UHGV virus genome: UHGV-1965195
Length of the DNA: 46,450 nucleotides
Strand: one strand, 5' to 3'
Source: a virus
Shown: positions 2,785 to 43,774 of the stretch, piece after piece
Layout of the letters: every line of letters begins with the position of its first letter
How positions within the stretch are numbered: position 1 is the first letter of the stretch
The notes under the pieces: generated by a model
What the model was told of the DNA's origin: nothing
What the model saw: only the letters and a program-made list of their open reading frames with translations
Database searches by the model: none
Position numbers and translations under genes: made by a program

Positions 2785-3408
2785 CTATTTCGCATATTTG
2801 TTGTTTCCATATTTTCTTGAGAGGTAAGCTTCTTCTTCGGATTTTGTTTCGGGTCTGTAGGTTCCATGAGTACCTCTTACCCATGTCTTTTTTCCGCCAT
2901 CTGGTTCTTCCTGTTCGAACTCATCTGGATACTTCTCTTTGACACCTTTCATGTACTCATCTGCACCAACAAAAGCACCGTCTTTAAACTCCATCTTCTG
3001 ATCCAGAAACTCATGTAAGATTGTCTTTCTGGATAAAGGAGATTTAATCTTCTGCGTGTCCAAAAACCGCTCTGCTGCAAACATCTTGCGGTCTGATTCA
3101 ATCTGGTCATTCAGTGCTTTTGTGTCTTCGTTGTACTTTTTCTCCCAGTCATCGGCAGACTGCTTGATTCCATCAATGTCCATTTCCTTGTAAGACTTGA
3201 TCGTATCGTTTGCTTCTCCAAGCTGTGTCTCCAGTCCATTCGCTTTCGTCTCAAGGCTCTGATACTTTTCCTTGCTGATGTAGCCACCCTCTGACAAGTC
3301 TACAAACCGGACATGCTGTAATTTATCCTCGATCCCGTTGTTGTGTTCCTGAATCTTTGCGTCTACCTGTCCGAAAAGTTCTTCTCCTAATACGTCTCTT
3401 AACTGCAT
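2785..3408 (-). CDS. Phage scaffold protein (GP20-like minor structural protein)
   Basis: Start placed at the internal ATG (MQLRDVLGEELFGQVDAKIQ...) preceded by AAGGAAAGGAATAAAG. Coiled-coil, charged, about 207 aa. Lies between the minor head protein block and the MCP. Confidence 0.6.
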   Translation of the reverse strand: MQLRDVLGEELFGQVDAKIQEHNNGIEDKLQHVRFVDLSEGGYISKEKYQSLETKANGLETQLGEANDTIKSYKEMDIDGIKQSADDWEKKYNEDTKALNDQIESDRKMFAAERFLDTQKIKSPLSRKTILHEFLDQKMEFKDGAFVGADEYMKGVKEKYPDEFEQEEPDGGKKTWVRGTHGTYRPETKSEEEAYLSRKYGNNKYAK

Positions 3409-3619
3409 CTTTATTCCTTTCCTTGACCACTGTTTATTATCGCGGTGTCTCCGCTGGCCGTGGCAGTTATTCTCCCATGCCACAGGGGATATTTCCCGCA
3501 GTTTAAATGTCTTGAGGGTTGATCGGACAAATACTATCCCCAAAATTGAGGAAAGCGTATAAAAATAGCACCTACCACTCTGGATAGATGCTAAATTTAT
3601 TGTTTTTATTTTTGAAATT

Positions 3620-3662
3620 GGCATAAAAATACCACTCACTCAATTAAGAATAAGTGGTATCA
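3620..3662 (-). terminator. Rho-independent terminator after the zinc-ribbon ORF
   Basis: Minus-strand RNA AUACCACU-(16 nt)-AGUGGUAU followed by UUUUUAUGCC. The stem starts at the stop codon. A 250-bp non-coding gap precedes the scaffold gene. Confidence 0.55.
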
Positions 3663-3851
3663 TCTCTTTTCTGCCGGTTCCATATGAATCTTAAAATTAC
3701 AGGTTGTACAATTGAAATATGTACTTGTTTTTGGATTATAAGGTGTAATGATTTTACCTGTTTTACATTCCGGACAAATTACTTCTTTTCCATCCCGTAA
3801 CGCCTTTATCATCATTCCAATTTCTTTTGGTGTCATTACTTTAGCCTCCAT
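3660..3851 (-). CDS. Small zinc-ribbon protein (CPEC...CTTC). Candidate immunity or partner of the upstream MuF C-terminal domain.
   Basis: 63 aa with two CxxC pairs (CPECKTGK, CTTCNFK). Overlaps the stop of the MuF-like gene by 16 nt. Confidence 0.5.
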   Translation of the reverse strand: MEAKVMTPKEIGMMIKALRDGKEVICPECKTGKIITPYNPKTSTYFNCTTCNFKIHMEPAEKR

Positions 3852-5473
3852 TCACGATCTGAATATCTTCCTTTTACTGATTTTATTATATTCCTAATGT
3901 CTTGTCCCGTCAATTTACCTTTCGTATGTAATTCAGCAAAATAGTCACAAACAACTTCTGCGTGTTGATCTCCACCTATATCTAATCGGATATGCGTTGC
4001 TTCATGGATAATCGTTTCCGCCGTCTTCCGTATGTTTTGTGTTTCCACCCCATTGATATAGATATGATTTCCAATACATGATCCATACAGACCTTCCAGT
4101 CCCGTTTCTGAAATTGTATTGTTGCTATAATATACGTTAACGGAAATATGATTCGTTTTAATAAAATCAAGAACTGCCTTTCCAACATCTGACTTATTAA
4201 GATTTTTGTATAAGTTAGCTGCGAGTACTGTATCCATTTCTTTTGTAATCTCTACATCAAATATTTTTTCTGCTGTTTTCTTTTTTATATTAGAAATTCT
4301 TGACTCAAATATTCTTCCCGGCAACACTCTTCCGAGCCCATCCATATACACTCTCTGCATCTGTTCTGGAAGCTCCATCTTTTTAGAAAACCCCTGATAT
4401 TCCCGGAGTGTGTTCAGATACTTTGCTTGGGCTGCCTGTATGTCCAATTGACTGGCTTTTCCCTTTTTTAGAAGATCAATGTCACTTCTCTGCTTTCTCA
4501 TTCTGGTTTCAAGTGTTCTCTGCCGCTGCTGTGCTTCATAGGCGTTATATGATTTTCCCTGATAAGACCTTGCGACCTGTTCATTTGCTTCCATTTCCCG
4601 CAATTGTTCCGATGTGTACGTTCTGACAGACACACCGTCTACGAACGCGAAGTAACTATGCTTACAATTAGCTCCGCACAGACCATCTACCTCTCCCAAA
4701 CGACAGATCGAGATCAGTTCCTGCTTTGTATACACATTCCCTCCCCACCAGTGAGAAGGTCTATGCCCGGCATGCCACGTTACTTCATAAGTGTCTGTCC
4801 CCAAATCCTTTGCCACCTGCTCATTAATCTGTGCAGCAAGTTGATGTACACCAGTCATGACAGCTCGTCTGACCGCCACAGGGGCCCGATTTCCATATCC
4901 TGACGCATAATTTACTGTCCGTATCCCACTGGCTGTCATTTCCTTTACTACACGCCTGAGAACGGTATTGTAATCGAACGCTCCGGTTACAATGTCCATA
5001 CATGCACGATCAAGATACTTCTGATAGTACTCCGAAAATGGAGTGAATACTTTCTTTCCTCCGTAATCCAAAGCAAATCCCATTGATCGTGTGATATTCT
5101 GGATTTCATGTTTTGTCTGGCTTAGAATTGCTTTCGCCCATGTCTGCATCTGCTCATTATCTTCATAAGGTGTAAAATGGGCATTTACCTGTTCGTAGAT
5201 TTCTTTTGTTCTGGTGTAATCCTTTTCGATTACAGTATCATAAATCTCCCACAGCTCCGGATCAGTAAGCCCTGAAAGACGTTTGATTTCTGATTCAATG
5301 AACTCCGTAGAATTTCCAATGATCTGTATTCTGTTCAACTGATAATCCGCTGTAGATGTAATTCCACCTGTCTTTTTAATCCTCCTGACTACATCTCTCA
5401 TAATGCGGTTCTGTAATTCGAGAAACATTTTTTCAAGTTGCAGTGGCAGGTGCTCCATTTCCTTTGGCTGCAT
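3836..5473 (-). CDS. Minor head / head morphogenesis protein of the MuF (SPP1 gp7) family with a C-terminal HExxH metallopeptidase-like extension
   Basis: 545 aa directly downstream of the portal gene. Central region (ASGYGNRAPVAVRRAVMTGVHQ...WHAGHRPSHWWGGNVY...GANCKHS) matches the MuF/gp7 core. About 200 extra C-terminal residues end in IIHEATHIRLDIGGDQHAEVVCDYFAE (HExxH plus a downstream acidic residue). Confidence 0.65.
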   Translation of the reverse strand: MQPKEMEHLPLQLEKMFLELQNRIMRDVVRRIKKTGGITSTADYQLNRIQIIGNSTEFIESEIKRLSGLTDPELWEIYDTVIEKDYTRTKEIYEQVNAHFTPYEDNEQMQTWAKAILSQTKHEIQNITRSMGFALDYGGKKVFTPFSEYYQKYLDRACMDIVTGAFDYNTVLRRVVKEMTASGIRTVNYASGYGNRAPVAVRRAVMTGVHQLAAQINEQVAKDLGTDTYEVTWHAGHRPSHWWGGNVYTKQELISICRLGEVDGLCGANCKHSYFAFVDGVSVRTYTSEQLREMEANEQVARSYQGKSYNAYEAQQRQRTLETRMRKQRSDIDLLKKGKASQLDIQAAQAKYLNTLREYQGFSKKMELPEQMQRVYMDGLGRVLPGRIFESRISNIKKKTAEKIFDVEITKEMDTVLAANLYKNLNKSDVGKAVLDFIKTNHISVNVYYSNNTISETGLEGLYGSCIGNHIYINGVETQNIRKTAETIIHEATHIRLDIGGDQHAEVVCDYFAELHTKGKLTGQDIRNIIKSVKGRYSDREWRLK

Positions 5474-5484
5474 ATCCTCACACC

Positions 5485-6864
5485 CTATTCCATTGTATCT
5501 TCCTGGCTAAATTGTGATGCCTGTTTCAGCATCTTGATCGCCTGCTCTTCCGTTTCACCGAAACGCTTCATCCGATACTCTACAGGACCAACAACTCCCA
5601 TACTAAAATCAGCACGGAGCTGCTCTGTCTCATATTTCTTGTCTGTTACAAGGGAATCATCCCAACTGCAGGATACTTCTACCTTTCCGTCTGCAGAAAT
5701 GCTACCAAGCGACATCCATACTTCCACTGCTGCCACAAGATTCTCAAGTGCGTTCCCAAGGCTATTCTGAATAGATTTTACCGTTGCGTAAGAGCGTTGC
5801 TTACTGGCCTTAATTTCTTCTGCTGTCTTATCCACTACCTGTGGATCTGAAAGAGTTCCATAAGCCAGACCACAGTTAAACTCTACTTTCTGTATGATCC
5901 TGTTGTACCCGTTGAAGAAACTCTCATCCCGAATCTCCGGCGAATACGCATTAAAAAAAGGATTTCCATCCCTGCTCATCACATTCGGTCCCATTGCCCG
6001 GTAAAGCCGTTCTTTCCCTTTTGGCAGGATAACTTCTCCCTGCCGGTTCTTCCGGAAAAATTCATCCGCTGCCTGAATTGCCGTTTCCTTTGATTTGTAT
6101 TCCCACAGCACTGCTCCATACTGCTCATCAGCATCCCGAATCTGATTCACGGCTCTTGCATAGATCGATACACCAAGAGGAGAATGGATGTCTGTATTGT
6201 TTGCCAATGGAATTTTGAAGTAAGAAAACAGCATCCTGTCCGCATTCTGAAACTCGACATAAGGGGCAATATCTGACCATTCCGGTACTTCTTCCAGATT
6301 GATCTCCTGTCCGAGATTTACGATATCATCCGTTTTTACCATTGCTTTCTTACTGATAAAAGCTTTGTTCACAATGCTGTATCTATCGCCCTGTAATGCG
6401 TGATATTCAAGTCTTGTATAAAGATTCTTTCCAGCGCGCTTAAATTCTGGGAAGATAGCCGCTGTAATCTCTCCTGCGCTGTTAAACTCTACCGGATAAA
6501 AGTCACCGGCTCTCACTACATCTATCTCAATCCCTTTCTGGGATAAATACGGTTTAAAGACCACACCGCCTGTACTGCAGGCAAACTCTGTGTAGTTTGA
6601 AATCTCATTTAGAAACGGCTGCATCCCCTCTTTAATCATTTCAGCTTTGCTTCCGCCCGTAATATTGATGCTGGATTCCATTGTCACCAGTCTTGCCATT
6701 TCGGAGCAGATTGCTGCCGGGAGGTTCAGTCCCTTTACATCATCATTCAGCCAGGGAGATTCGTTGATATACATCTTTGACCACCGATAGATTGCCTGTG
6801 CCATTCTCTGGGATACCGCAACATCCACTCCCATTGCCTGTTTTATAGTTTCATACTGTATCAA
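5485..6864 (-). CDS. Portal protein (SPP1 gp6-like)
   Basis: 459 aa between TerL and the MuF-like gene. Canonical order TerS-TerL-portal-MuF. Confidence 0.7.
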   Translation of the reverse strand: MIQYETIKQAMGVDVAVSQRMAQAIYRWSKMYINESPWLNDDVKGLNLPAAICSEMARLVTMESSINITGGSKAEMIKEGMQPFLNEISNYTEFACSTGGVVFKPYLSQKGIEIDVVRAGDFYPVEFNSAGEITAAIFPEFKRAGKNLYTRLEYHALQGDRYSIVNKAFISKKAMVKTDDIVNLGQEINLEEVPEWSDIAPYVEFQNADRMLFSYFKIPLANNTDIHSPLGVSIYARAVNQIRDADEQYGAVLWEYKSKETAIQAADEFFRKNRQGEVILPKGKERLYRAMGPNVMSRDGNPFFNAYSPEIRDESFFNGYNRIIQKVEFNCGLAYGTLSDPQVVDKTAEEIKASKQRSYATVKSIQNSLGNALENLVAAVEVWMSLGSISADGKVEVSCSWDDSLVTDKKYETEQLRADFSMGVVGPVEYRMKRFGETEEQAIKMLKQASQFSQEDTME

Positions 6865-8219
6865 CGTTCCTCACCTCTTTCTGATATTGGCAACATAAAT
6901 TTAATCCGGTTCCACATTCCAACGCATAAATAGCGTGTTCCGTCAAGTGCATGATCGTTCTCTTTTACCGGTATCTCAACGCCTTTTTTAATTCCATCTG
7001 TATTGTACTGATAAAGTCCAAACTCCTTGATCAGCATCTTCTGTTTCTCGCTGACGATCATTCTTCCGAAAGACAACAACTTCTGCACACGGCTGATTCC
7101 TAATTTGACGTCATTCTGCGCCGGTATAACCGGTATATGGGGGATGACTCTCCGTATTTCCTCAATCAGACCTGCTGCCGATGGATCCACGAATATGTAG
7201 CTGACTACACGGTCATACTCCTGTTCTATCTTGTCGCAGAATGTTTTCATATTCTGTGCGTATTCTGATGGGGACTTCTGCGTTCCACTGTCTCGCCCGG
7301 AGTAGTAATACTCATCAATCCCTCGCAGAACCTGATTCTGATAGTCCAAACCAAATGCTTCATAGACTGTCGCATTCTGTTGACCGTAATCCACTCCGAT
7401 TCCGATCTCCCCGATACTTCTCTTTTCTTCCTCGATGTAATCTTCTGGCTGATAAATATGCTTCTCTGCAGAGAACATATAGTAGATCAGGTCATCCACT
7501 CCAGTAGGCTCGCCCAACCATGTCCATCGGTACATCTTGATATCCGCTCGCATCATAGCTTCTGCAGAATCAATCAGATCCTGTCCCAACCAATCAACCG
7601 GAACATCCTTATAGCTTGTGTGAATATGGATGCAGTCTTCCCGTTCTTCCATCTTCTTGCACCAGAGGTTGATCGGAGCATTCGGATTCTTCGGCGGATT
7701 GTAAAGATAGATCATCTGGAAACCAGCTTTGTTTCCACGGACGAACGTTGCTTCTATATTCGCCAGTTCATCTTCCCCTTCCCCGTCATCAAAGAACTCT
7801 GTCAGCTCATCCAATACTACAAGCTTTATCGGCTTGTCCTCATCGATGATACCTTTTGTATCGTCAATTCCATCAGAACCGGAGAAATACATCGTTGTAT
7901 TGTGTTTTTTATACGTGATCTCCATCGGTGATTTTCCGATCTTGAAATATGACTTGGGGATTTCTAGCCGGTTAATGCCCCGGAGCATTTCTTTGTACAC
8001 TGTTTTCCGCAGCTTATTGTGATGTTTGCGAAGAACTACTGCTGAACCATTCGCATCATCCACCAACTGGAAGATTCCTCTGACTCCTGCATAACTGGAT
8101 TTTGTACCGGCACGGCCAGAAGTCAGGATAATATGTTTATGCTGCTTATCGTTAAATAAAGGCAGATATTTCGGAATGATCAGATCTGATATTCTAACCT
8201 GTTTCTTTGTCTGCATCAT
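6861..8219 (-). CDS. terL: Terminase large subunit
   Basis: 452 aa. N-terminal ATPase with Walker A-like LTSGRAGTKSS. C-terminal nuclease region with acidic residues. Overlaps the TerS and portal genes by 4 nt each. Confidence 0.8.
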   Translation of the reverse strand: MMQTKKQVRISDLIIPKYLPLFNDKQHKHIILTSGRAGTKSSYAGVRGIFQLVDDANGSAVVLRKHHNKLRKTVYKEMLRGINRLEIPKSYFKIGKSPMEITYKKHNTTMYFSGSDGIDDTKGIIDEDKPIKLVVLDELTEFFDDGEGEDELANIEATFVRGNKAGFQMIYLYNPPKNPNAPINLWCKKMEEREDCIHIHTSYKDVPVDWLGQDLIDSAEAMMRADIKMYRWTWLGEPTGVDDLIYYMFSAEKHIYQPEDYIEEEKRSIGEIGIGVDYGQQNATVYEAFGLDYQNQVLRGIDEYYYSGRDSGTQKSPSEYAQNMKTFCDKIEQEYDRVVSYIFVDPSAAGLIEEIRRVIPHIPVIPAQNDVKLGISRVQKLLSFGRMIVSEKQKMLIKEFGLYQYNTDGIKKGVEIPVKENDHALDGTRYLCVGMWNRIKFMLPISERGEER

Positions 8220-8658
8220 TGATAATCTCTACTCCTTCCGTTTCATCCTCACTACTGCAATCTCTGTTCAGCTTATCTGCGTTTGCCCGTTTCAATTCTG
8301 TATCTGCTTCTCGGTTGCGTCTGTTCTCATCCGGTTCCTGTGATTGCCCCGCATACTTCGCTACGAATGTAGCTGCCTGCGTATTTCCGCTCAGCGCTTC
8401 TTTGATCTGTGCCATCAAAAGAGCCGATTCCAGAGTGCACTCAACACCAAGTGACTCCAGAACCGGCTTCCATTCAGGACTATCTATTTCAGCGGTAAGC
8501 AGCAAATTCAAAGTCTTTCTAAAATCAGCTTTCCTTCTTCTTGCTTCACCACTTGCTTTACCCGCTTTTATTGCTAACTCCCGCCGTTCCTCCGCGGTTT
8601 TCTTATCAAATCCATAATCTTTTATGTTATCATAACCTGCCACTTCACCACCTTCCAA
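8194..8658 (-). CDS. terS: Terminase small subunit (putative)
   Basis: 154-aa basic, helical protein immediately upstream of and overlapping terL. Non-ATG start (TTG or GTG). Assignment by position. Confidence 0.55.
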   Translation of the reverse strand: MEGGEVAGYDNIKDYGFDKKTAEERRELAIKAGKASGEARRRKADFRKTLNLLLTAEIDSPEWKPVLESLGVECTLESALLMAQIKEALSGNTQAATFVAKYAGQSQEPDENRRNREADTELKRANADKLNRDCSSEDETEGVEIINDADKETG

Positions 8659-8704: not shown

Positions 8705-9439
8705 TTACAATATATTTTCTTCTTTCAGGATTTCATATAATTCTCTATATTCTTTGTATTCTTCTTTAAGTCCTTCGCTGAAGTAATTAAATCCTATCAC
8801 TGAAGTATAGTATGTAGGGTTCCACTCTGTTACTTCTAAAAACCTGTTCACTGTAAACTGCAGCCTATCCAAACTCCTAGTGCCATCCATGCCTTCAAGC
8901 AGTATATAATATGTCAAAGTAACATCTTCGAAGTGTTCATTTTCCTTATTTAATTTCAAAGTTAATACTCTTTCAGGATCTTCGTATTCTTCTGTTCTAA
9001 TTGTCGCTGCATTTACAGGATCTATGTCCTCAATTCTATTGTTACTAAATTCGATAATTGAAAATTTATACACCTCTCCTGTACGAACATCTATTTTTAT
9101 TGGAATTTGTAAATCAGCTCTTTCTAAATTATTTTGAATATTTCTTATTGCATCTTTAGACGGTTGCACATACGAGTAAGTCAATTTTTCTATTAAACGT
9201 GAATGAGCATCCTGATCCTTTTGATGATTGTAACTATTGAGACTCAACAAATTCGCAATTAATGCTATACTTATTGTTACCAGACAACCAATATTTTTCT
9301 CAAATAATACAAAGATATGGTCATCTCGTTTTTCTTTTTTTCTTATATACTTAAACATACAGCATATTGTATATAAAAAAATGATAACAAAAACAAAACC
9401 AAGAAGTGCAAGCATTCCCCACAACAAATATATACTCAT
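8705..9439 (-). CDS. AT-rich membrane protein (moron). Two N-terminal transmembrane (TM) helices.
   Basis: Start set at MSIYLLWGMLALLGFVFVIIFL with GAGGGA 7 nt upstream. Markedly lower GC than the flanking terminase and activator genes. Sits between the tRNA and terS and is followed by a terminator. Confidence 0.5.
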   Translation of the reverse strand: MSIYLLWGMLALLGFVFVIIFLYTICCMFKYIRKKEKRDDHIFVLFEKNIGCLVTISIALIANLLSLNSYNHQKDQDAHSRLIEKLTYSYVQPSKDAIRNIQNNLERADLQIPIKIDVRTGEVYKFSIIEFSNNRIEDIDPVNAATIRTEEYEDPERVLTLKLNKENEHFEDVTLTYYILLEGMDGTRSLDRLQFTVNRFLEVTEWNPTYYTSVIGFNYFSEGLKEEYKEYRELYEILKEENIL

Positions 9440-9597
9440 AGTTATTCCCTCTTTTCTCGAATTAATTTCCATGATACTCTATTCTATGAACTTTTTCAAC
9501 TTTTTTGATATTTAGAACTACCACAAAAATGAAATACGTAACTTGGCAACTTTACTGGATTCTATAACACAAGGAGGGAACTTGCAGTAGTCCACAA

Positions 9598-9670
9598 CGG
9601 GTATAGTAGGACTCGAACCTACGACACATCGGTTAACAGCCGATTGCTCTACCAACTGAGCTATACACCC
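9598..9670 (-). tRNA. tRNA-Asn (anticodon GTT), phage-encoded
   Basis: Reverse complement folds as a canonical 73-nt cloverleaf: GGGTGTA TA GCTC AGTTGGTA GAGC A ATCGG CTGTTAA CCGAT GTGTC GTAGG TTCGAGT CCTAC TATACCC G. Anticodon loop CU-GUU-AA. No encoded CCA. Confidence 0.8.
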
Positions 9671-23456: not shown

Positions 23457-23685
23457 TCCTTTCTTTTTGATTGAGTTCTGAAAATATCACAATTTTATAT
23501 TGACTAAGTTCTGAAAATATTCTATAATCAAGTTGTCAAGCAAAATTACAAAATAAATTCCAGCATTCTTATTATCGCAATTTTTTGCGATTTTTTCAGA
23601 ACCCTATAATCACATTATACGCGATAATTTCAGAATGTCAAGGACTATTTTGCGATTTTTTCAGAATTTTGAAAGGAGTCTACAT
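23457..23685. promoter_or_regulatory. Lysogeny genetic switch: divergent promoter region with operator repeat arrays
   Basis: Five copies of the TTCTGAAAAT/ATTTTCAGAA half-site at 23475-23487, 23508-23520, 23590-23602, 23626-23636 and 23655-23667. Palindrome ATCGCAA-tttt-TTGCGAT at 23574-23591 with further TGCGAT copies. Consensus promoter TTGACT-17-TATAAT at 23500-23528 overlapping an operator. Confidence 0.65.
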
Positions 23686-24108
23686 ATGACACTGAGAGAA
23701 CGCGTAAAACATCTGTGCAAAGAACATGGAATTTCAATGAATAAATTGGAAAACGAGCTTAATTTTGGAAAAGGGTACATAAGCAAATTAGGTTCAAGTC
23801 AACCAAATGTTAACAAGCTCCAGCAAATCGCTGATTACTTCAGCGTATCGTTGGATTATTTAATGTCTGGAGCATCTAATGGTGATAATCCGTCATCACT
23901 CACGGCGAAAGATGAGCGCGACATTGCAAAAGATATGGAAAACATCAGAAATAAGTTGAAAAACAATGAAGAAGGTCCTGCTTCTTATGATGGTCAAGCT
24001 ATTCCAGAAGAAGATATTGACTTGCTTCTTGGGCAAATCGAGCTGATGATGAGAAGGTTGAAACCGATTAACAAAGAAAAGTACAACCCTAACAAAAATA
24101 AAAAGTAG
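23686..24108 (+). CDS. cI-like XRE-family repressor
   Basis: Start at MTLRERVKHLCKEHGISMNKLENELNFGKGYISKL with GAAAGGAG upstream. N-terminal HTH. C-terminal region is a plausible ImmA target. Confidence 0.65.
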   Translation: MTLRERVKHLCKEHGISMNKLENELNFGKGYISKLGSSQPNVNKLQQIADYFSVSLDYLMSGASNGDNPSSLTAKDERDIAKDMENIRNKLKNNEEGPASYDGQAIPEEDIDLLLGQIELMMRRLKPINKEKYNPNKNKK

Positions 24109-24552
24109 GTGTATAAATTGAGAACAAACGATATTAAGCGTTTAGTTGAATACTACATAAAGAAATTTAATACAAGAAATCCTTTTAAACTTGCAAACTG
24201 TTTAAATGTCGAAGTTCAATTAGGACCTTTGGGAAGTCGAGCTGGATGTTATATGTTTCTTAAAAATCACAAGTGCATTTTTCTGAATGAAGATTTGGAA
24301 GAACATGAACTAAACCTTGTAATGGCTCATGAATTGGCACACTCTGTTCTACACAGAAAGGAAAATTGTTACTTTATCAGAAATAAGACTCTTCTATTAT
24401 CTTCTACCAATGAAATAGAAGCGAATATTTTTGCAGCAGAACTTCTAATACCAGATTCTTTAATTTATGAGAATCCGGGCATGACAAAAAGCCAAATTGC
24501 AAGACTAGCTGGATATGATGAAAAGATTATGGATTTTAAAAGTTTTAAATGA
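24109..24552 (+). CDS. immA: ImmA/IrrE-family metallopeptidase (repressor-cleaving anti-repressor protease)
   Basis: HEXXH motif MAHELAHSVLH. Immediately downstream of, and abutting, the repressor gene, which is the classic ImmR-ImmA arrangement. Confidence 0.7.
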   Translation: MYKLRTNDIKRLVEYYIKKFNTRNPFKLANCLNVEVQLGPLGSRAGCYMFLKNHKCIFLNEDLEEHELNLVMAHELAHSVLHRKENCYFIRNKTLLLSSTNEIEANIFAAELLIPDSLIYENPGMTKSQIARLAGYDEKIMDFKSFK

Positions 24553-24627: not shown

Positions 24628-25659
24628 ATGGGATTTCGTTTCAGAAAAAGTTTTAAAATTGCTCCCGGTATAAAGTTTAATCTTAACAAGAATAGCCATA
24701 GCTTCACGTTTGGTGGAAAAGGAATTCACTACACTGTTAATTCTGATGGAAAACGGACAAAAAGCTTTGGAATTCCAGGGAGCGGACTGTATTACACAGA
24801 AACCAAAAACGGAAAAACTAAAGAAAACAAGGGGAAAACAATGAGTAAAACATCGAATAAAAGTGGTGGAGGATGTCTTAGCATTATTGCCTTGCTGATA
24901 ATGCTCTCTATTGCACTTGTAGTGTATTCTTTTTTATGGATACCAGCCATACCGGTATTGATATACTGTGTTGTATCCAAAAAATTCCGGCCATACAGGA
25001 TCAGGAATACTGCGATATGCTCGGTTGTGTTTGTAACATCTCTAATTATCTTCATATGGCTTGGATCTCCGTCTGAATTGAACTCTATATCTGCAGAGTG
25101 GGGGAAAAAAGAATTTAATATCGGAGATGTAACGGAGGTGAAAATTACTCCAAGCCCGTCGGACGCAAAAATCGAAAGTTTGGAATTATCCGAAAATAAT
25201 ATCGCAGATCTCGAATATAAGGACGGAAAAGCCGTCATTACATTTACGGGCTCTGGGAATGCATCACTATTTTTTACGGCGAATGGAGAAGTTAAAAGCA
25301 GTGCGAAAACTATTACCGTTATAGATCCGGAAGAAGAAGCGAGAATAAAAGCCGAGGAAGAAGAACGGATTAGGTTGGAACAGGAAGCTCAAGCAGCTGA
25401 ACAGGCGCGTATTGAGCAAGAACAGGCTGCGGCAGCGGCTGCTGAACAGGAAAGGATTGCACAAGAGCAAGCTGCAGCGCAAGCAGCACAAGAGCAGGCT
25501 GCACAGCAAAGCCAAGATGATCCCATCGTGTATATAACAAACACTGGGGCAAAGTATCATAGCGCTGGATGCAGAACTTTGAAATCTAAGATAGAAAAAC
25601 ATCTGTCTGAGGTACGCGGAGTTTATGAACCGTGCGGCATTTGCCATCCACCACAATAA
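24628..25659 (+). CDS. DUF4236-domain membrane protein with Ig-like domain, E/A/Q-rich coiled-coil linker and C-terminal Cys motif. Candidate superinfection-exclusion or moron protein.
   Basis: N-terminus MGFRFRKSFKIAPGIKFNLNKNSHSFTFGGKG is DUF4236-type. Three TM helices. EAQ-rich repeat region. C-terminus YITNTGAKYHSAGCRTLK...EPCGICHP. Sits between immA and int. Confidence 0.55.
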   Translation: MGFRFRKSFKIAPGIKFNLNKNSHSFTFGGKGIHYTVNSDGKRTKSFGIPGSGLYYTETKNGKTKENKGKTMSKTSNKSGGGCLSIIALLIMLSIALVVYSFLWIPAIPVLIYCVVSKKFRPYRIRNTAICSVVFVTSLIIFIWLGSPSELNSISAEWGKKEFNIGDVTEVKITPSPSDAKIESLELSENNIADLEYKDGKAVITFTGSGNASLFFTANGEVKSSAKTITVIDPEEEARIKAEEEERIRLEQEAQAAEQARIEQEQAAAAAAEQERIAQEQAAAQAAQEQAAQQSQDDPIVYITNTGAKYHSAGCRTLKSKIEKHLSEVRGVYEPCGICHPPQ

Positions 25660-25819
25660 AATAAAAACCGCCCCTGCGCCAACAGAGACGGTATACATAT
25701 CCGAAGATATGCGATTGAAATCCACGAATATTGTATCATCTTCGGAAACAGCTTGCAAGCGGAACGTTTGTTTTGCGCTGGCTGTTATTTTTATACTAAA
25801 ATTTAAGGAGATGATAAAA

Positions 25820-26938
25820 ATGGGAACTAAATACAAGCGCGGAAAAGACGGATATTTCCGCACAAAAGCATGGGATGGAACTTATAATACAGATGGAACG
25901 AAACACCGCCAAAATCTACAGACAACAAGGTCCAGTAAAGAGCTGGAGCGAATTGTACAGGAATTTAAAGCAAAGGTCGAGAGCCGGCAGAACATCCGGA
26001 AGACGGACATTACATTCCGGGAATACGCAAAGAAATGGAAGGAAGTATACAAGCACTCCAAAGAGGGTAATACAAAGGCAATGTACAGCAATATAATAGA
26101 CAAGCACTTTATCCTACTTGATGGAGTTAAAGTATCCGATATTGGCAGAATCCACCTACAGCTCTTACTAAACAATGCAAACGGAAAGCCAAGGACACAA
26201 GAGCAGATCTACATGGCATTTAAACAGGTTTTGGGAAGTGCTATGGCGGACAAAATCTATCCGCCGGTACTATACGAGGAAATCTTTGCAAGCATCCAAA
26301 AACCTAAATATAAGGCGCCGGATAAACGCCCTCTGACGGAATCTGAGAAAAAAGCTGTCTTTGCCGCAGAGTACAAATACGACAGGGATCAGGTCTACAC
26401 ATATCTGATCTATGGCTGCGGAATGCGCAGAGAAGAGACACTGGCTCTTACGGTGTTTGACTTTAACTTTAAAAACAACACCATTACAGTCAACAAGGCT
26501 TTTGAATTTGCAACCGGTAACGGGCAGCCTACTCTAAAAGGTACTAAGAGCGATAATGGAGACCGTACTCTCCCGATACCAACAAAGATATTGCACATTG
26601 TGAAAAACTTTGTAGAATCCGCAAGAGCGCGTGGAAAAACTTATATTTTTACCATGCAAGGCGGAGAGCCGATGTCTAAGAGCAGCTACGATAAAATGTG
26701 GGTGAGAATCCGCAAGGCGTTGCAAGAGCAATCGGAAGAACAGATCACCGGTCTTACATCACACGTATTCCGGCACAACTACTGCACCAACCTGTGTTAC
26801 CAGATTCCGAAGATCTCGATCAAGAGGATTGCGCAGCTACTGGGGGATTCTGAAAAGATGGTAATAGAGGTTTACAATCACATCATAATGGAAAAAGAGG
26901 ATGCTGATGGGGCAGTCAATGATGCCATGAATTTTTAG
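25820..26938 (+). CDS. int: Tyrosine-type site-specific integrase
   Basis: C-terminal catalytic region with HVFRHNY...Y. Start chosen at MGTKYKRGKDG with AAGGAG 9 nt upstream. 372 aa. Confidence 0.8.
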   Translation: MGTKYKRGKDGYFRTKAWDGTYNTDGTKHRQNLQTTRSSKELERIVQEFKAKVESRQNIRKTDITFREYAKKWKEVYKHSKEGNTKAMYSNIIDKHFILLDGVKVSDIGRIHLQLLLNNANGKPRTQEQIYMAFKQVLGSAMADKIYPPVLYEEIFASIQKPKYKAPDKRPLTESEKKAVFAAEYKYDRDQVYTYLIYGCGMRREETLALTVFDFNFKNNTITVNKAFEFATGNGQPTLKGTKSDNGDRTLPIPTKILHIVKNFVESARARGKTYIFTMQGGEPMSKSSYDKMWVRIRKALQEQSEEQITGLTSHVFRHNYCTNLCYQIPKISIKRIAQLLGDSEKMVIEVYNHIIMEKEDADGAVNDAMNF

Positions 26939-43120: not shown

Positions 43121-43363
43121 TTCATATTCAAGGATAAGAAGATATTCGGTGGGTGTGCCCCTTCCCACATTTCTTTTGACCACTTGGGTGCGTAGCAGCA
43201 CAATCTCTACTTCAAATATCTTGTCATATTTCTTTACAAAGCAAGAAGTTATCCGGCAGGCGTCGCCTCTCCTGCATCTCTTTTGACCACTTGGGTGCGT
43301 GGTTGCAACGAATTTTACCACCTCGAATAACTTCCTGCTTATTGTATTCAAATTATACAACAT
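43118..43363 (-). CDS. 81-aa ORF of doubtful coding status. Contains two 22-bp direct repeats whose conservation is at the nucleotide level.
   Basis: ATG immediately follows the upstream stop. The repeat tcttttgaccacttgggtgcgt occurs at 43172-43193 and 43279-43300 (107 bp apart, hence in different frames). Followed by a terminator. Confidence 0.3.
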   Translation of the reverse strand: MLYNLNTISRKLFEVVKFVATTHPSGQKRCRRGDACRITSCFVKKYDKIFEVEIVLLRTQVVKRNVGRGTPTEYLLILEYE

Positions 43364-43774
43364 CTATTCCTTTTTGTAAAGAATTGTTTTGTTCCTCAAA
43401 TAGTTTTGCAGTCTTTTTTCACTAATCTCCCAACATGAAATTACTGAATTTTTATAATTCGGATCATCATTTGAAGTACATATTCTCAATACCATTTGAG
43501 CATATTCATTTCCTGTTTTGATCTTCTTTACAACTAACCCCGTATTTTTATGCTTATCCTTTATAATAAGATCCGGTTCCTGTATAATATCTGACAAATA
43601 ATCAATCACTTCTTTATAGGCCTCAGGGTGCCTATCCAATATATGTTGCATTTGATTCTCTGTAATAATGACATCATCTGTAACAATATCTTCTGTGATA
43701 CACCTATAAATATTACGATTTATTTTTCCTACTAAATGCACTTCAACAGCCTCTTTCGTCTTGAATACATTCAT
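43364..43774 (-). CDS. Hypothetical protein (136 aa) with a conserved-looking QMQHILDRHPEAY motif. Candidate toxin or nuclease-like accessory protein.
   Basis: No family recognised. Sits in the accessory island between the Bro-N gene and the repeat element. Confidence 0.4.
   Translation of the reverse strand: MNVFKTKEAVEVHLVGKINRNIYRCITEDIVTDDVIITENQMQHILDRHPEAYKEVIDYLSDIIQEPDLIIKDKHKNTGLVVKKIKTGNEYAQMVLRICTSNDDPNYKNSVISCWEISEKRLQNYLRNKTILYKKE

Follow-up and report, generated by a model that had tools for sequence, protein, structure and literature searches.

Polymorphic toxins of the MuF type, as defined by Zhang 2012 (PMC3482391) and Jamet 2017 (PMC5576092), combine the MuF core of a temperate phage, encoded after the portal gene, with a variable enzymatic tail and a short open reading frame (ORF) directly 3′ of the toxin gene. 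The only ones characterised so far are Apk2, together with its immunity proteins, and now Bxa (PMC12226406, PMC11699363); these two are the tail types studied experimentally, and no metallopeptidase MuF toxin has been characterised by experiment (PMC11699363). The subject of the present work is a locus of this kind in the virus genome UHGV-1965195, a stretch of 46,450 nucleotides (nt) that is called the window throughout. Here, a MuF2-type minor head protein of 545 amino acids (aa; 3836–5473 with the stop codon) is followed by the gene for a zinc-ribbon protein of 58 aa (3660–3836 with the stop codon), both on the minus strand, as are all parts of the locus located below. The pair is probably a polymorphic toxin of the MuF family together with its cognate immunity gene, carried by a temperate siphophage of Mediterraneibacter gnavus; comparative genomics lends strong support to the toxin/immunity reading, and the zinc-ribbon protein is predicted to be the cognate immunity protein or inhibitor. 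An earlier note, made from the letters of the window, had put the pair forward as a candidate for this role, and the proposal is supported by swapped tails, a mobile cassette, and the linkage of the zinc ribbon to the tail.

With the described MuF polymorphic toxins the locus has the post-portal core, the variable enzymatic tail and the small ORF in common, and also the exchange of tails among cores and the occurrence of the same tails in other delivery systems. It differs from them in a zincin-like tail family for which no Pfam, NCBIfam or PADLOC model exists, and in a partner that is a zinc ribbon of ~55 aa. Unlike the other MuF cassettes examined, this partner comes with a conserved promoter inside the toxin ORF and with a terminator of its own. 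No description of the tail family, the zinc-ribbon partner or the embedded promoter was found in the available libraries and literature. The class as such is known: metallopeptidase domains were counted in 20% of 191 MuF toxins, a share that may include the present tail family, and because Jamet 2017 (PMC5576092) already reports metallopeptidase tails on MuF, the view of the earlier note that such a cargo would be unusual was overstated.

The Tox-MPTase1–5 families (Zhang 2012, PMC3482391) and DUF6782 resemble the tail in being small (~130 aa) Wss1-like zincins with an HExxH motif, placed C-terminally on delivered proteins; the window protein, in contrast, matches neither and has the signature HExxH-x11-E-xx-C...H. 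Tox-MPTases were listed with RHS carriers and with carriers of the type VI or type VII secretion systems, not on MuF, and no immunity proteins are known for them (Zhang 2012, PMC3482391). Of the evolved VgrG/Pvc8 spikes with a C-terminal metallopeptidase effector, Pseudomonas aeruginosa VgrG2b (PDB 6h56) gave, with its effector domain, a weak Foldseek match to the tail, which was not significant (E 0.9). As in these spikes, a homolog of the domain ends a VgrG/Pvc8 protein of Paenibacillus, where it is followed by a 72-aa zinc-ribbon-like ORF beginning LNGEKVPCPNCG; the window protein, on the other hand, is a head protein, and the VgrG-linked copy lacks the embedded promoter.

With regard to gene arrangement, the nuclease colicin operons provide a close parallel: reportedly (the 2007 review by Cascales et al. 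may serve as an example), the immunity gene there is served by a constitutive promoter of its own, situated within the colicin structural gene. In the window the putative immunity promoter likewise lies in the 3′ part of the toxin ORF, an arrangement that would provide immunity while the toxin gene is silent, and the immunity ORF likewise abuts the toxin stop codon. Unlike the colicin case, the unit is part of a phage late operon, its toxin would be packaged in the virion, and a terminator closes it in the manner of a moron. A further difference is that conserved Leu-Thr and x-Ile-Ile codons of the toxin double as the promoter hexamers, and its terminal Trp-Arg codons as the ribosome-binding site.

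The MuF core and its extension

PF06152 (Phage_min_cap2), the family called 'MuF2' in Jamet 2017 (PMC5576092), covers residues 1–362 of the 545-aa protein (E 2e-93; 313.7 bits, where the cut-off is 26.3); a further match, at E 4e-100, is to phrog_581, 'minor head protein'. MuF superfamily cores are classed here as PF04233 (MuF1), PF06152 (MuF2), MuF3 and MuF4. The portal gene (5485–6864; phrog_533, E 1e-113; PF05133 weak) lies directly upstream and thus provides the MuF genomic context, so that the MuF-type protein right after a portal gene, as first described for this stretch, is borne out. Matches of the protein to phage MuF proteins in tblastn stop at about residue 385, and the tail swap in the sister phage L055, described below, breaks at residue 386/387. 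The conserved core, residues 1–385 (4319–5473), is predicted to be the capsid-targeting, portal-associated part.

What follows is a variable C-terminal extension, residues 386–545 (3839–4318), which is replaced wholesale in L055. Both the extension and its HExxH motif had been recognized before, but the extension comprises ~160 residues and not 200, and the motif lies 51 residues ahead of the C-terminus. A MuF core, a gene position after the portal in a temperate phage, a variable C-terminal domain shared with other proteins, and a co-occurring small ORF (<150 aa) are among the features by which MuF polymorphic toxins are recognized, and these four are found here.

Several relatives have a MuF gene that is interrupted at about residue 253–275, near a CGxNC(K/R)H motif (L003, 1641–4843; L004; L005, 1383–4846; L006, 48–1890). 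The insert, 1.55–1.9 kb in length, encodes an HNH plus AP2-like endonuclease (219–284 aa) and small ORFs (NikA-like, ORF6N), and resembles an intron or else a mobile homing cassette; no group I or group II intron was found by Rfam at the gathering threshold in the split genes. The MuF gene of the window, unlike these relatives, is uninterrupted.

The zincin-like domain

The last ~160 residues of the MuF protein are confidently modelled as a zincin fold, with the structured part at residues ~413–536 (3866–4237). According to the model, the HExxH motif, HEATH at residues 490–494 (3992–4006), is located on the active-site helix inside the zincin alpha/beta fold, and E506 (3956–3958), 12 residues past H494, opens the helix that comes next. 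H490, E491, H494 and E506 are invariant in 77 full-length relatives, E506 also in a set of 21 sequences, and C509 and H516 are nearly so. This invariance shows that the HExxH is not a chance match, and it upholds the motif with a downstream acidic residue that had been read from the sequence. The earlier note had named an alignment to extensions without conserved metal ligands as evidence to the contrary; what was found is a family throughout which the metal-ligand residues are invariant. E506 would be the third metal ligand, as in gluzincins. H504 (in DQH) was considered for this position and ruled out, being Trp in most relatives; with H504 set aside and E506 invariant, the HExxH-x11-E part of the signature is gluzincin-like.

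No curated sequence family covers residues ~374–545 (Pfam at E ≤ 10, NCBIfam, PADLOC), and a PDB sequence profile of the tail against solved structures gave nothing significant. The Tox-MPTase families in Pfam (e.g., PF15640) do not match the window protein, nor does DUF6782 (PF20573), even at E 10. Of the 77 relatives, 15 matched this 'putative metallopeptidase' family, with a best E value of 1.9e-6, an alignment to DUF6782 positions ~24–101 in some, and 17–19 bits where scores are given, below the gathering threshold of 27. The matches named for the tail are Wss1, lugdulysin, a 'zincin-like metalloprotease' (3e11), deuterolysin, CapP, selecase and other minigluzincins, and further Spartan, ArdC, lethal factor and the botulinum light chains.

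The notion that the tail domain is very rare, suggested by a word-indexed homology search with 8 clusters, was abandoned when an exhaustive profile search over 1.84 billion representatives returned 268 clusters at E ≤ 1e-3, 145 of them at E ≤ 1e-10. Among the matches listed, the domain is C-terminal in 148 of 149. In P0141 (722 aa), a protein from the same search, the first-named part may be a releasing peptidase.

The zinc-ribbon gene and its linkage to the domain

The small ORF had been described as encoding 63 aa with two CxxC motifs and as overlapping the MuF stop codon. Such an ORF is present (3660–3851; CPEC and CTTC), but the start of the gene is likely the second ATG (3836–3834), which overlaps the MuF stop codon as TAATG and gives a product of 58 instead of 63 aa, because the homologs all begin at the equivalent MTPKE or MSYKE and a GGAGG lies 8 nt upstream. 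The 58-aa form is also the one annotated by NCBI in Mediterraneibacter gnavus. The AlphaFold2 model of the protein (pLDDT 85) has a helix at residues 3–14 and a three-stranded ribbon, and the two CxxC knuckles on this three-stranded beta structure identify it, at the level of the model, as a zinc ribbon; no informative structural neighbours of the model were found. The exact sequence occurs on at least 1000 public contigs.

Throughout the close subfamily (17 of 17 loci) and three distant branches (8 of 8 loci), a zinc-ribbon homolog lies directly 3′ of the domain, and the same holds for the split-gene relatives. When the search was seeded with the zinc ribbon, 80 viral loci were obtained, 69 of which have the HExxH domain within 700 nt upstream. 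Ten of the other 11 comprise five distinct zinc-ribbon types and have the zinc ribbon as a displaced gene in second place: the MuF protein carries a different tail, followed by that tail's own small ORF and then by the zinc ribbon. A zinc ribbon next to a MuF protein without extension, an arrangement that had been named beforehand as speaking against an immunity gene, was not seen (79 of the 80 zinc-ribbon-seeded loci covered). Along these lines, the divergence of the zinc ribbon follows that of the C-terminal domain (r 0.90, partial 0.87) and not that of the MuF core (r 0.55, partial 0.29).

Exchange of tails and mobility of the cassette

The cores found in the 77 long relatives belong to PF06152 (35), PF04233 or MuF1 (24), PF25310 or VG15 (9), and in one case to VgrG/Pvc8, the Paenibacillus contractile-injection spike of 1079–1095 aa with the domain homolog at its end (E 2e-13). 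A comparison of related MuF C-termini, as had been advised in the earlier note, indeed revealed conserved cores with swapped tails. In RG-TP1 the MuF core is 51% identical and the tail is absent, and in the Acutalibacter phage Fontainebleau a 46% identical core carries a PF15644 glutamine-deamidase (Tox-PL1) tail (E 5e-14) with its own small ORF. The closest case is provided by L055 (IMGVR_UViG_3300029842_000077), which is of the same lineage as the window, with 95–96% nt identity on either side of the tail, and in which window positions 4311–3830 are replaced by 653 unrelated nt (L055 1855–2507). One breakpoint is MuF residue 386/387, and the other is codon 3 of the zinc-ribbon gene, which persists downstream. 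The insert encodes an HEKQH tail (…LFHEKQHVNQF…) with a weak match to Tox-MPTase4 (E 0.013), and a different CxxC...CxxC ORF of 58 aa with weak matches to Lar/PaaD zinc ribbons. In L055 a second, unrelated zincin tail is likewise paired with a zinc-ribbon mini-protein.

What L031, with a MuF1 core, has in common with L035, whose core is MuF2, is confined to the last 150 aa (83% identity), the zinc ribbon and the terminator, amounting to 640 nt at 81% identity. On this comparison, a cassette of domain, zinc ribbon and terminator (~640 bp) has evidently moved between unrelated MuF cores. An orphan array outside any phage was found in L007 (ENA ERZ27309421 k141_2256, 4903–6205, on a chromosomal contig of 162 kb), with the same array in L008. 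It starts with the last 32 codons of an HExxH domain, including the promoter (10/12), and an intact zinc-ribbon gene, continues with a broken MuF-core tail fragment, to which an ADP-ribosyltransferase-like domain (PF03496, E 0.002) is fused, and with an ORF of 104 aa, and adjoins an IS256-like transposase fragment. By analogy, it is an orphan-cassette array like those of the Rhs, contact-dependent inhibition (CDI) and Maf loci. The promoter is gone from the displaced zinc-ribbon copies in L055, L061, L071 and L077; L071 still has a remnant of the DYPDYKWR codons.

Predicted embedded promoter, ribosome-binding site and terminators

A putative promoter of the sigma-A type (3885–3913), agreeing with the consensus at 11 of 12 positions, is located inside MuF codons 521–530, with the −35 hexamer TTGACG at 3913–3908, a spacer of 17 nt, the −10 hexamer TATAAT at 3890–3885, and the zinc-ribbon ATG 48 nt downstream. 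Six sites of this quality are found in the 46-kb window, compared with a mean of 1.5 in shuffled sequence, and two of the six are the divergent promoters of what is likely the lysogeny switch. Of the 19 MuF-linked loci compared, 18 have the promoter at an equal distance, distant branches included.

The codon usage at this site is uneven. In 16 distinct sequences, the Leu codon of the −35 hexamer is always TTG (background 19%), the Ile codon of the −10 hexamer is always ATA (background 27%), and the codon preceding the −10 always has T as its third base (background 29%), with the residue being A, D, G, N or S. In the same 16 sequences the third base of the Thr codon is free, the five spacer codons differ in amino acid as well as in nucleotides, and the neighbouring Val, Lys and Arg codons vary freely. 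The joint probability of the conservation of TTG, third-base T and ATA is 0.015 per lineage. The hexamers, conserved at synonymous as well as non-synonymous positions, thus appear to be under selection at the level of the DNA.

The Shine-Dalgarno sequence of the zinc-ribbon gene, GGAGG (3845–3849), arises from TGG AGG, the conserved Trp-Arg codons with which the MuF reading frame closes. The VgrG/Pvc8-linked homolog, which has no embedded promoter, ends in Tyr-Arg, with a separate AAGGAGG past the stop codon. The strong terminator noticed earlier after the small ORF is present, but there are two, not one: the first (3628–3661; −19 kcal/mol, z −6.6) has a 14-bp stem followed by U5 and begins at the zinc-ribbon stop codon, and the second (3566–3593; −17.3 kcal/mol, z −5.1) has an 11-bp stem followed by U5. 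A hairpin and T-run at the zinc-ribbon stop codon recur in 17 of 19 MuF-linked loci checked, where the interior of the stem shows changes. With a promoter, a ribosome-binding site and a terminator of its own, the zinc-ribbon gene would thus be an autonomous transcription unit, and its signals, own promoter and own terminator between late genes, are those of a moron-type unit. No embedded immunity promoter was seen in the Gln-deamidase, HEKQH or other MuF tails examined. The terminators at 3566–3661 stand in the middle of the head-gene operon, between the MuF/zinc-ribbon pair and the scaffold gene; late transcription must pass them or restart, and no good promoter was seen ahead of the scaffold gene in the window.

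Proposed function and alternative explanations

It can be envisaged that the MuF core directs the fusion to the capsid, and that a few copies would be packaged and enter the target cell with the DNA, a route that was described for SPP1 gp7 and proposed for MuF toxins (Jamet 2017, PMC5576092). Inside the cell, the domain would act as a zinc-dependent hydrolase, most likely a peptidase, and cleave a cytoplasmic target, while the zinc-ribbon protein would bind the domain and block its active site. The promoter, being of the host sigma-A type, would not depend on late transcription, so that the inhibitor would be made in lysogens and shield them from the toxin of sibling virions. Its synthesis would also take place as soon as the DNA has entered, which would restrict the action of the toxin to a short period, and before or during the late synthesis of the MuF protein.

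Several points weigh against this interpretation. Ejection and action in the cell are still a hypothesis for MuF fusions in general (PMC5576092, PMC11699363). A lethal toxin injected together with the phage's own DNA would be self-defeating, and 'toxin' may thus mean a transient effector. The link between the domain and the zinc-ribbon protein is drawn from genomic comparison, the embedded promoter is predicted solely from the sequence, and the two strong mid-operon terminators require a read-through by late transcription that the toxin/immunity reading leaves unexplained. Furthermore, no toxin-annotated family in Pfam, NCBIfam or PADLOC matches the window protein, and even the relatives of its tail reach DUF6782 only below threshold.

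The alternative that survives best, although we consider it unlikely, is a non-lethal injected effector, i.e., a virion-delivered host-takeover or anti-defence enzyme in the manner of the 'polyvalent proteins' or T4 Alt, which would cleave a host defence or regulatory protein, with the zinc ribbon as an immediate-early inhibitor that sets the timing. Zincin-like metallopeptidases are the commonest domain in polyvalent proteins delivered by phages and plasmids (Iyer 2017, PMC5512222), a low-toxicity scenario for peptidase tails was also proposed by Jamet 2017 (PMC5576092), and a promoter of the host type would fire immediately upon DNA entry. The retention of displaced or orphan zinc-ribbon genes that have no enzyme with them (L007, L055, L061, L071, L077), on the other hand, fits protection from an incoming toxin better than a purely cis-acting timer, and the same pair on a VgrG/Pvc8 spike is found in the context of a weapon. 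The two explanations overlap in mechanism and differ mainly in biological purpose.

Less probable still is a domain with another chemistry, a metal-dependent nuclease such as a YbeY-like RNase or some other non-peptidase hydrolase, for which the logic of toxin and immunity would be the same. More than half of the known MuF toxins are nucleases (Jamet 2017, PMC5576092); the YbeY motif HxxxHxxxxxH, however, is without the general-base Glu, whereas an HExxH whose Glu is invariant, with a further invariant Glu downstream, as found here, is the peptidase-type gluzincin signature. Most of the other matches are peptidases as well (Wss1, lugdulysin, deuterolysin, selecase, lethal factor, botulinum neurotoxin), and the weak matches of the relatives to DUF6782 are to a putative metallopeptidase family. 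A role in morphogenesis, with the HExxH domain as a head-maturation or self-processing protease and the zinc ribbon either as a cofactor of assembly or as an unrelated moron, a small phage gene, is very improbable: the genes do lie within the head module, some metallopeptidase domains of polymorphic toxins act as releasing peptidases (Zhang 2012, PMC3482391), and a Prp-like protease is encoded nearby in relatives, though not in the window phage, but in the closest phages, which build heads all the same, the tail is missing (RG-TP1), is a glutamine deamidase or, on a 95%-identical backbone, is of the HEKQH type, natural variants which imply that the domain is dispensable for morphogenesis, the domain also occurs on a contractile-injection spike and is terminal, with no other cargo after it, and a promoter and terminator of its own and orphan copies outside phages ill suit an assembly cofactor.

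If the toxin/immunity reading is extended to all carriers, a wider proposal can be put forward, which we hold only tentatively. The zincin tail and the zinc ribbon may form an undescribed, widespread family of toxin–inhibitor pairs that is employed by no fewer than three families of phage head proteins and by a contractile injection system. The promoter and ribosome-binding site of the antidote would be written into the conserved codons of the toxin (Leu-Thr, x-Ile-Ile, Trp-Arg), such that any recombination that moves the toxin would carry a ready-to-express antidote with it, and loss of the toxin would silence the antidote. The zinc ribbon would inhibit by occupying the cleft of the catalytic zinc and, together with the HEKQH/CxxC pair of L055, zinc ribbons might then be a recurrent class of inhibitors of metallopeptidase toxins.

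Genome context

The window is the circularly permuted genome of a temperate siphophage, whose DNA relatives are temperate phages of [Ruminococcus] gnavus. An integrase (25625–26938), a repressor with an ImmA-like protease (23635–24552) and an antirepressor are encoded, and further an endolysin, a holin and a tape-measure protein. Divergent near-consensus promoters at 23500 (+) and 23641 (−), with 11/12 and 12/12 agreement, are flanked by the repressor gene and the early leftward genes and likely constitute the lysogeny switch.

The head and packaging module begins with the genes for the small terminase subunit, TerS (8194–8658), and the large subunit, TerL (6861–8219), which are followed by portal, MuF and zinc-ribbon genes and, after the two terminators, by the scaffold gene (about 2785–3410) and the major capsid gene (1899–2765); from TerS to the major capsid, every gene is on the minus strand. 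The major capsid gene is closely followed, at 1474–1821 (−), by the gene for a 115-aa protein that contains a collagen-like (GPA/GEK) repeat. Relatives have Collagen and Phage_head_fibr domains at this position, and the protein is thus probably a head fibre or decoration protein.

On the other side of the module, a 255-aa ORF (8705–9472, −) with an N-terminal hydrophobic segment and no PHROG match lies between a tRNA and the small terminase gene in a stretch of low GC content (0.36) and is perhaps an accessory or moron gene. The tRNA itself (9598–9670, −; Rfam RF00005, 72.6 bits) is phage-encoded, and in related R. gnavus phages the matching region is annotated as tRNA-Asn and adjoins a RinA-family activator. 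Two tandem 'skipping-rope' RNA motifs of Rfam (RF02924; 55 and 59 bits, gathering score 36.7) are located at 43141–43220 and 43248–43331 (−), with a promoter-like site at 43380 (−), the near-consensus TTTACA-17-TATAAT, ahead of them.

Significance

MuF toxins are abundant in the prophages of the human gut, and the locus described here is a compact and very common system of M. gnavus, with a clear catalytic motif and a candidate inhibitor of 58 aa. It combines a regulatory twist with good experimental tractability. The tail domain and the zinc ribbon constitute two unannotated protein families that could join the catalogues of toxins and immunity proteins. The embedded immunity promoter, if confirmed, would show when immunity is expressed, be it in the lysogen, upon entry or in late infection.

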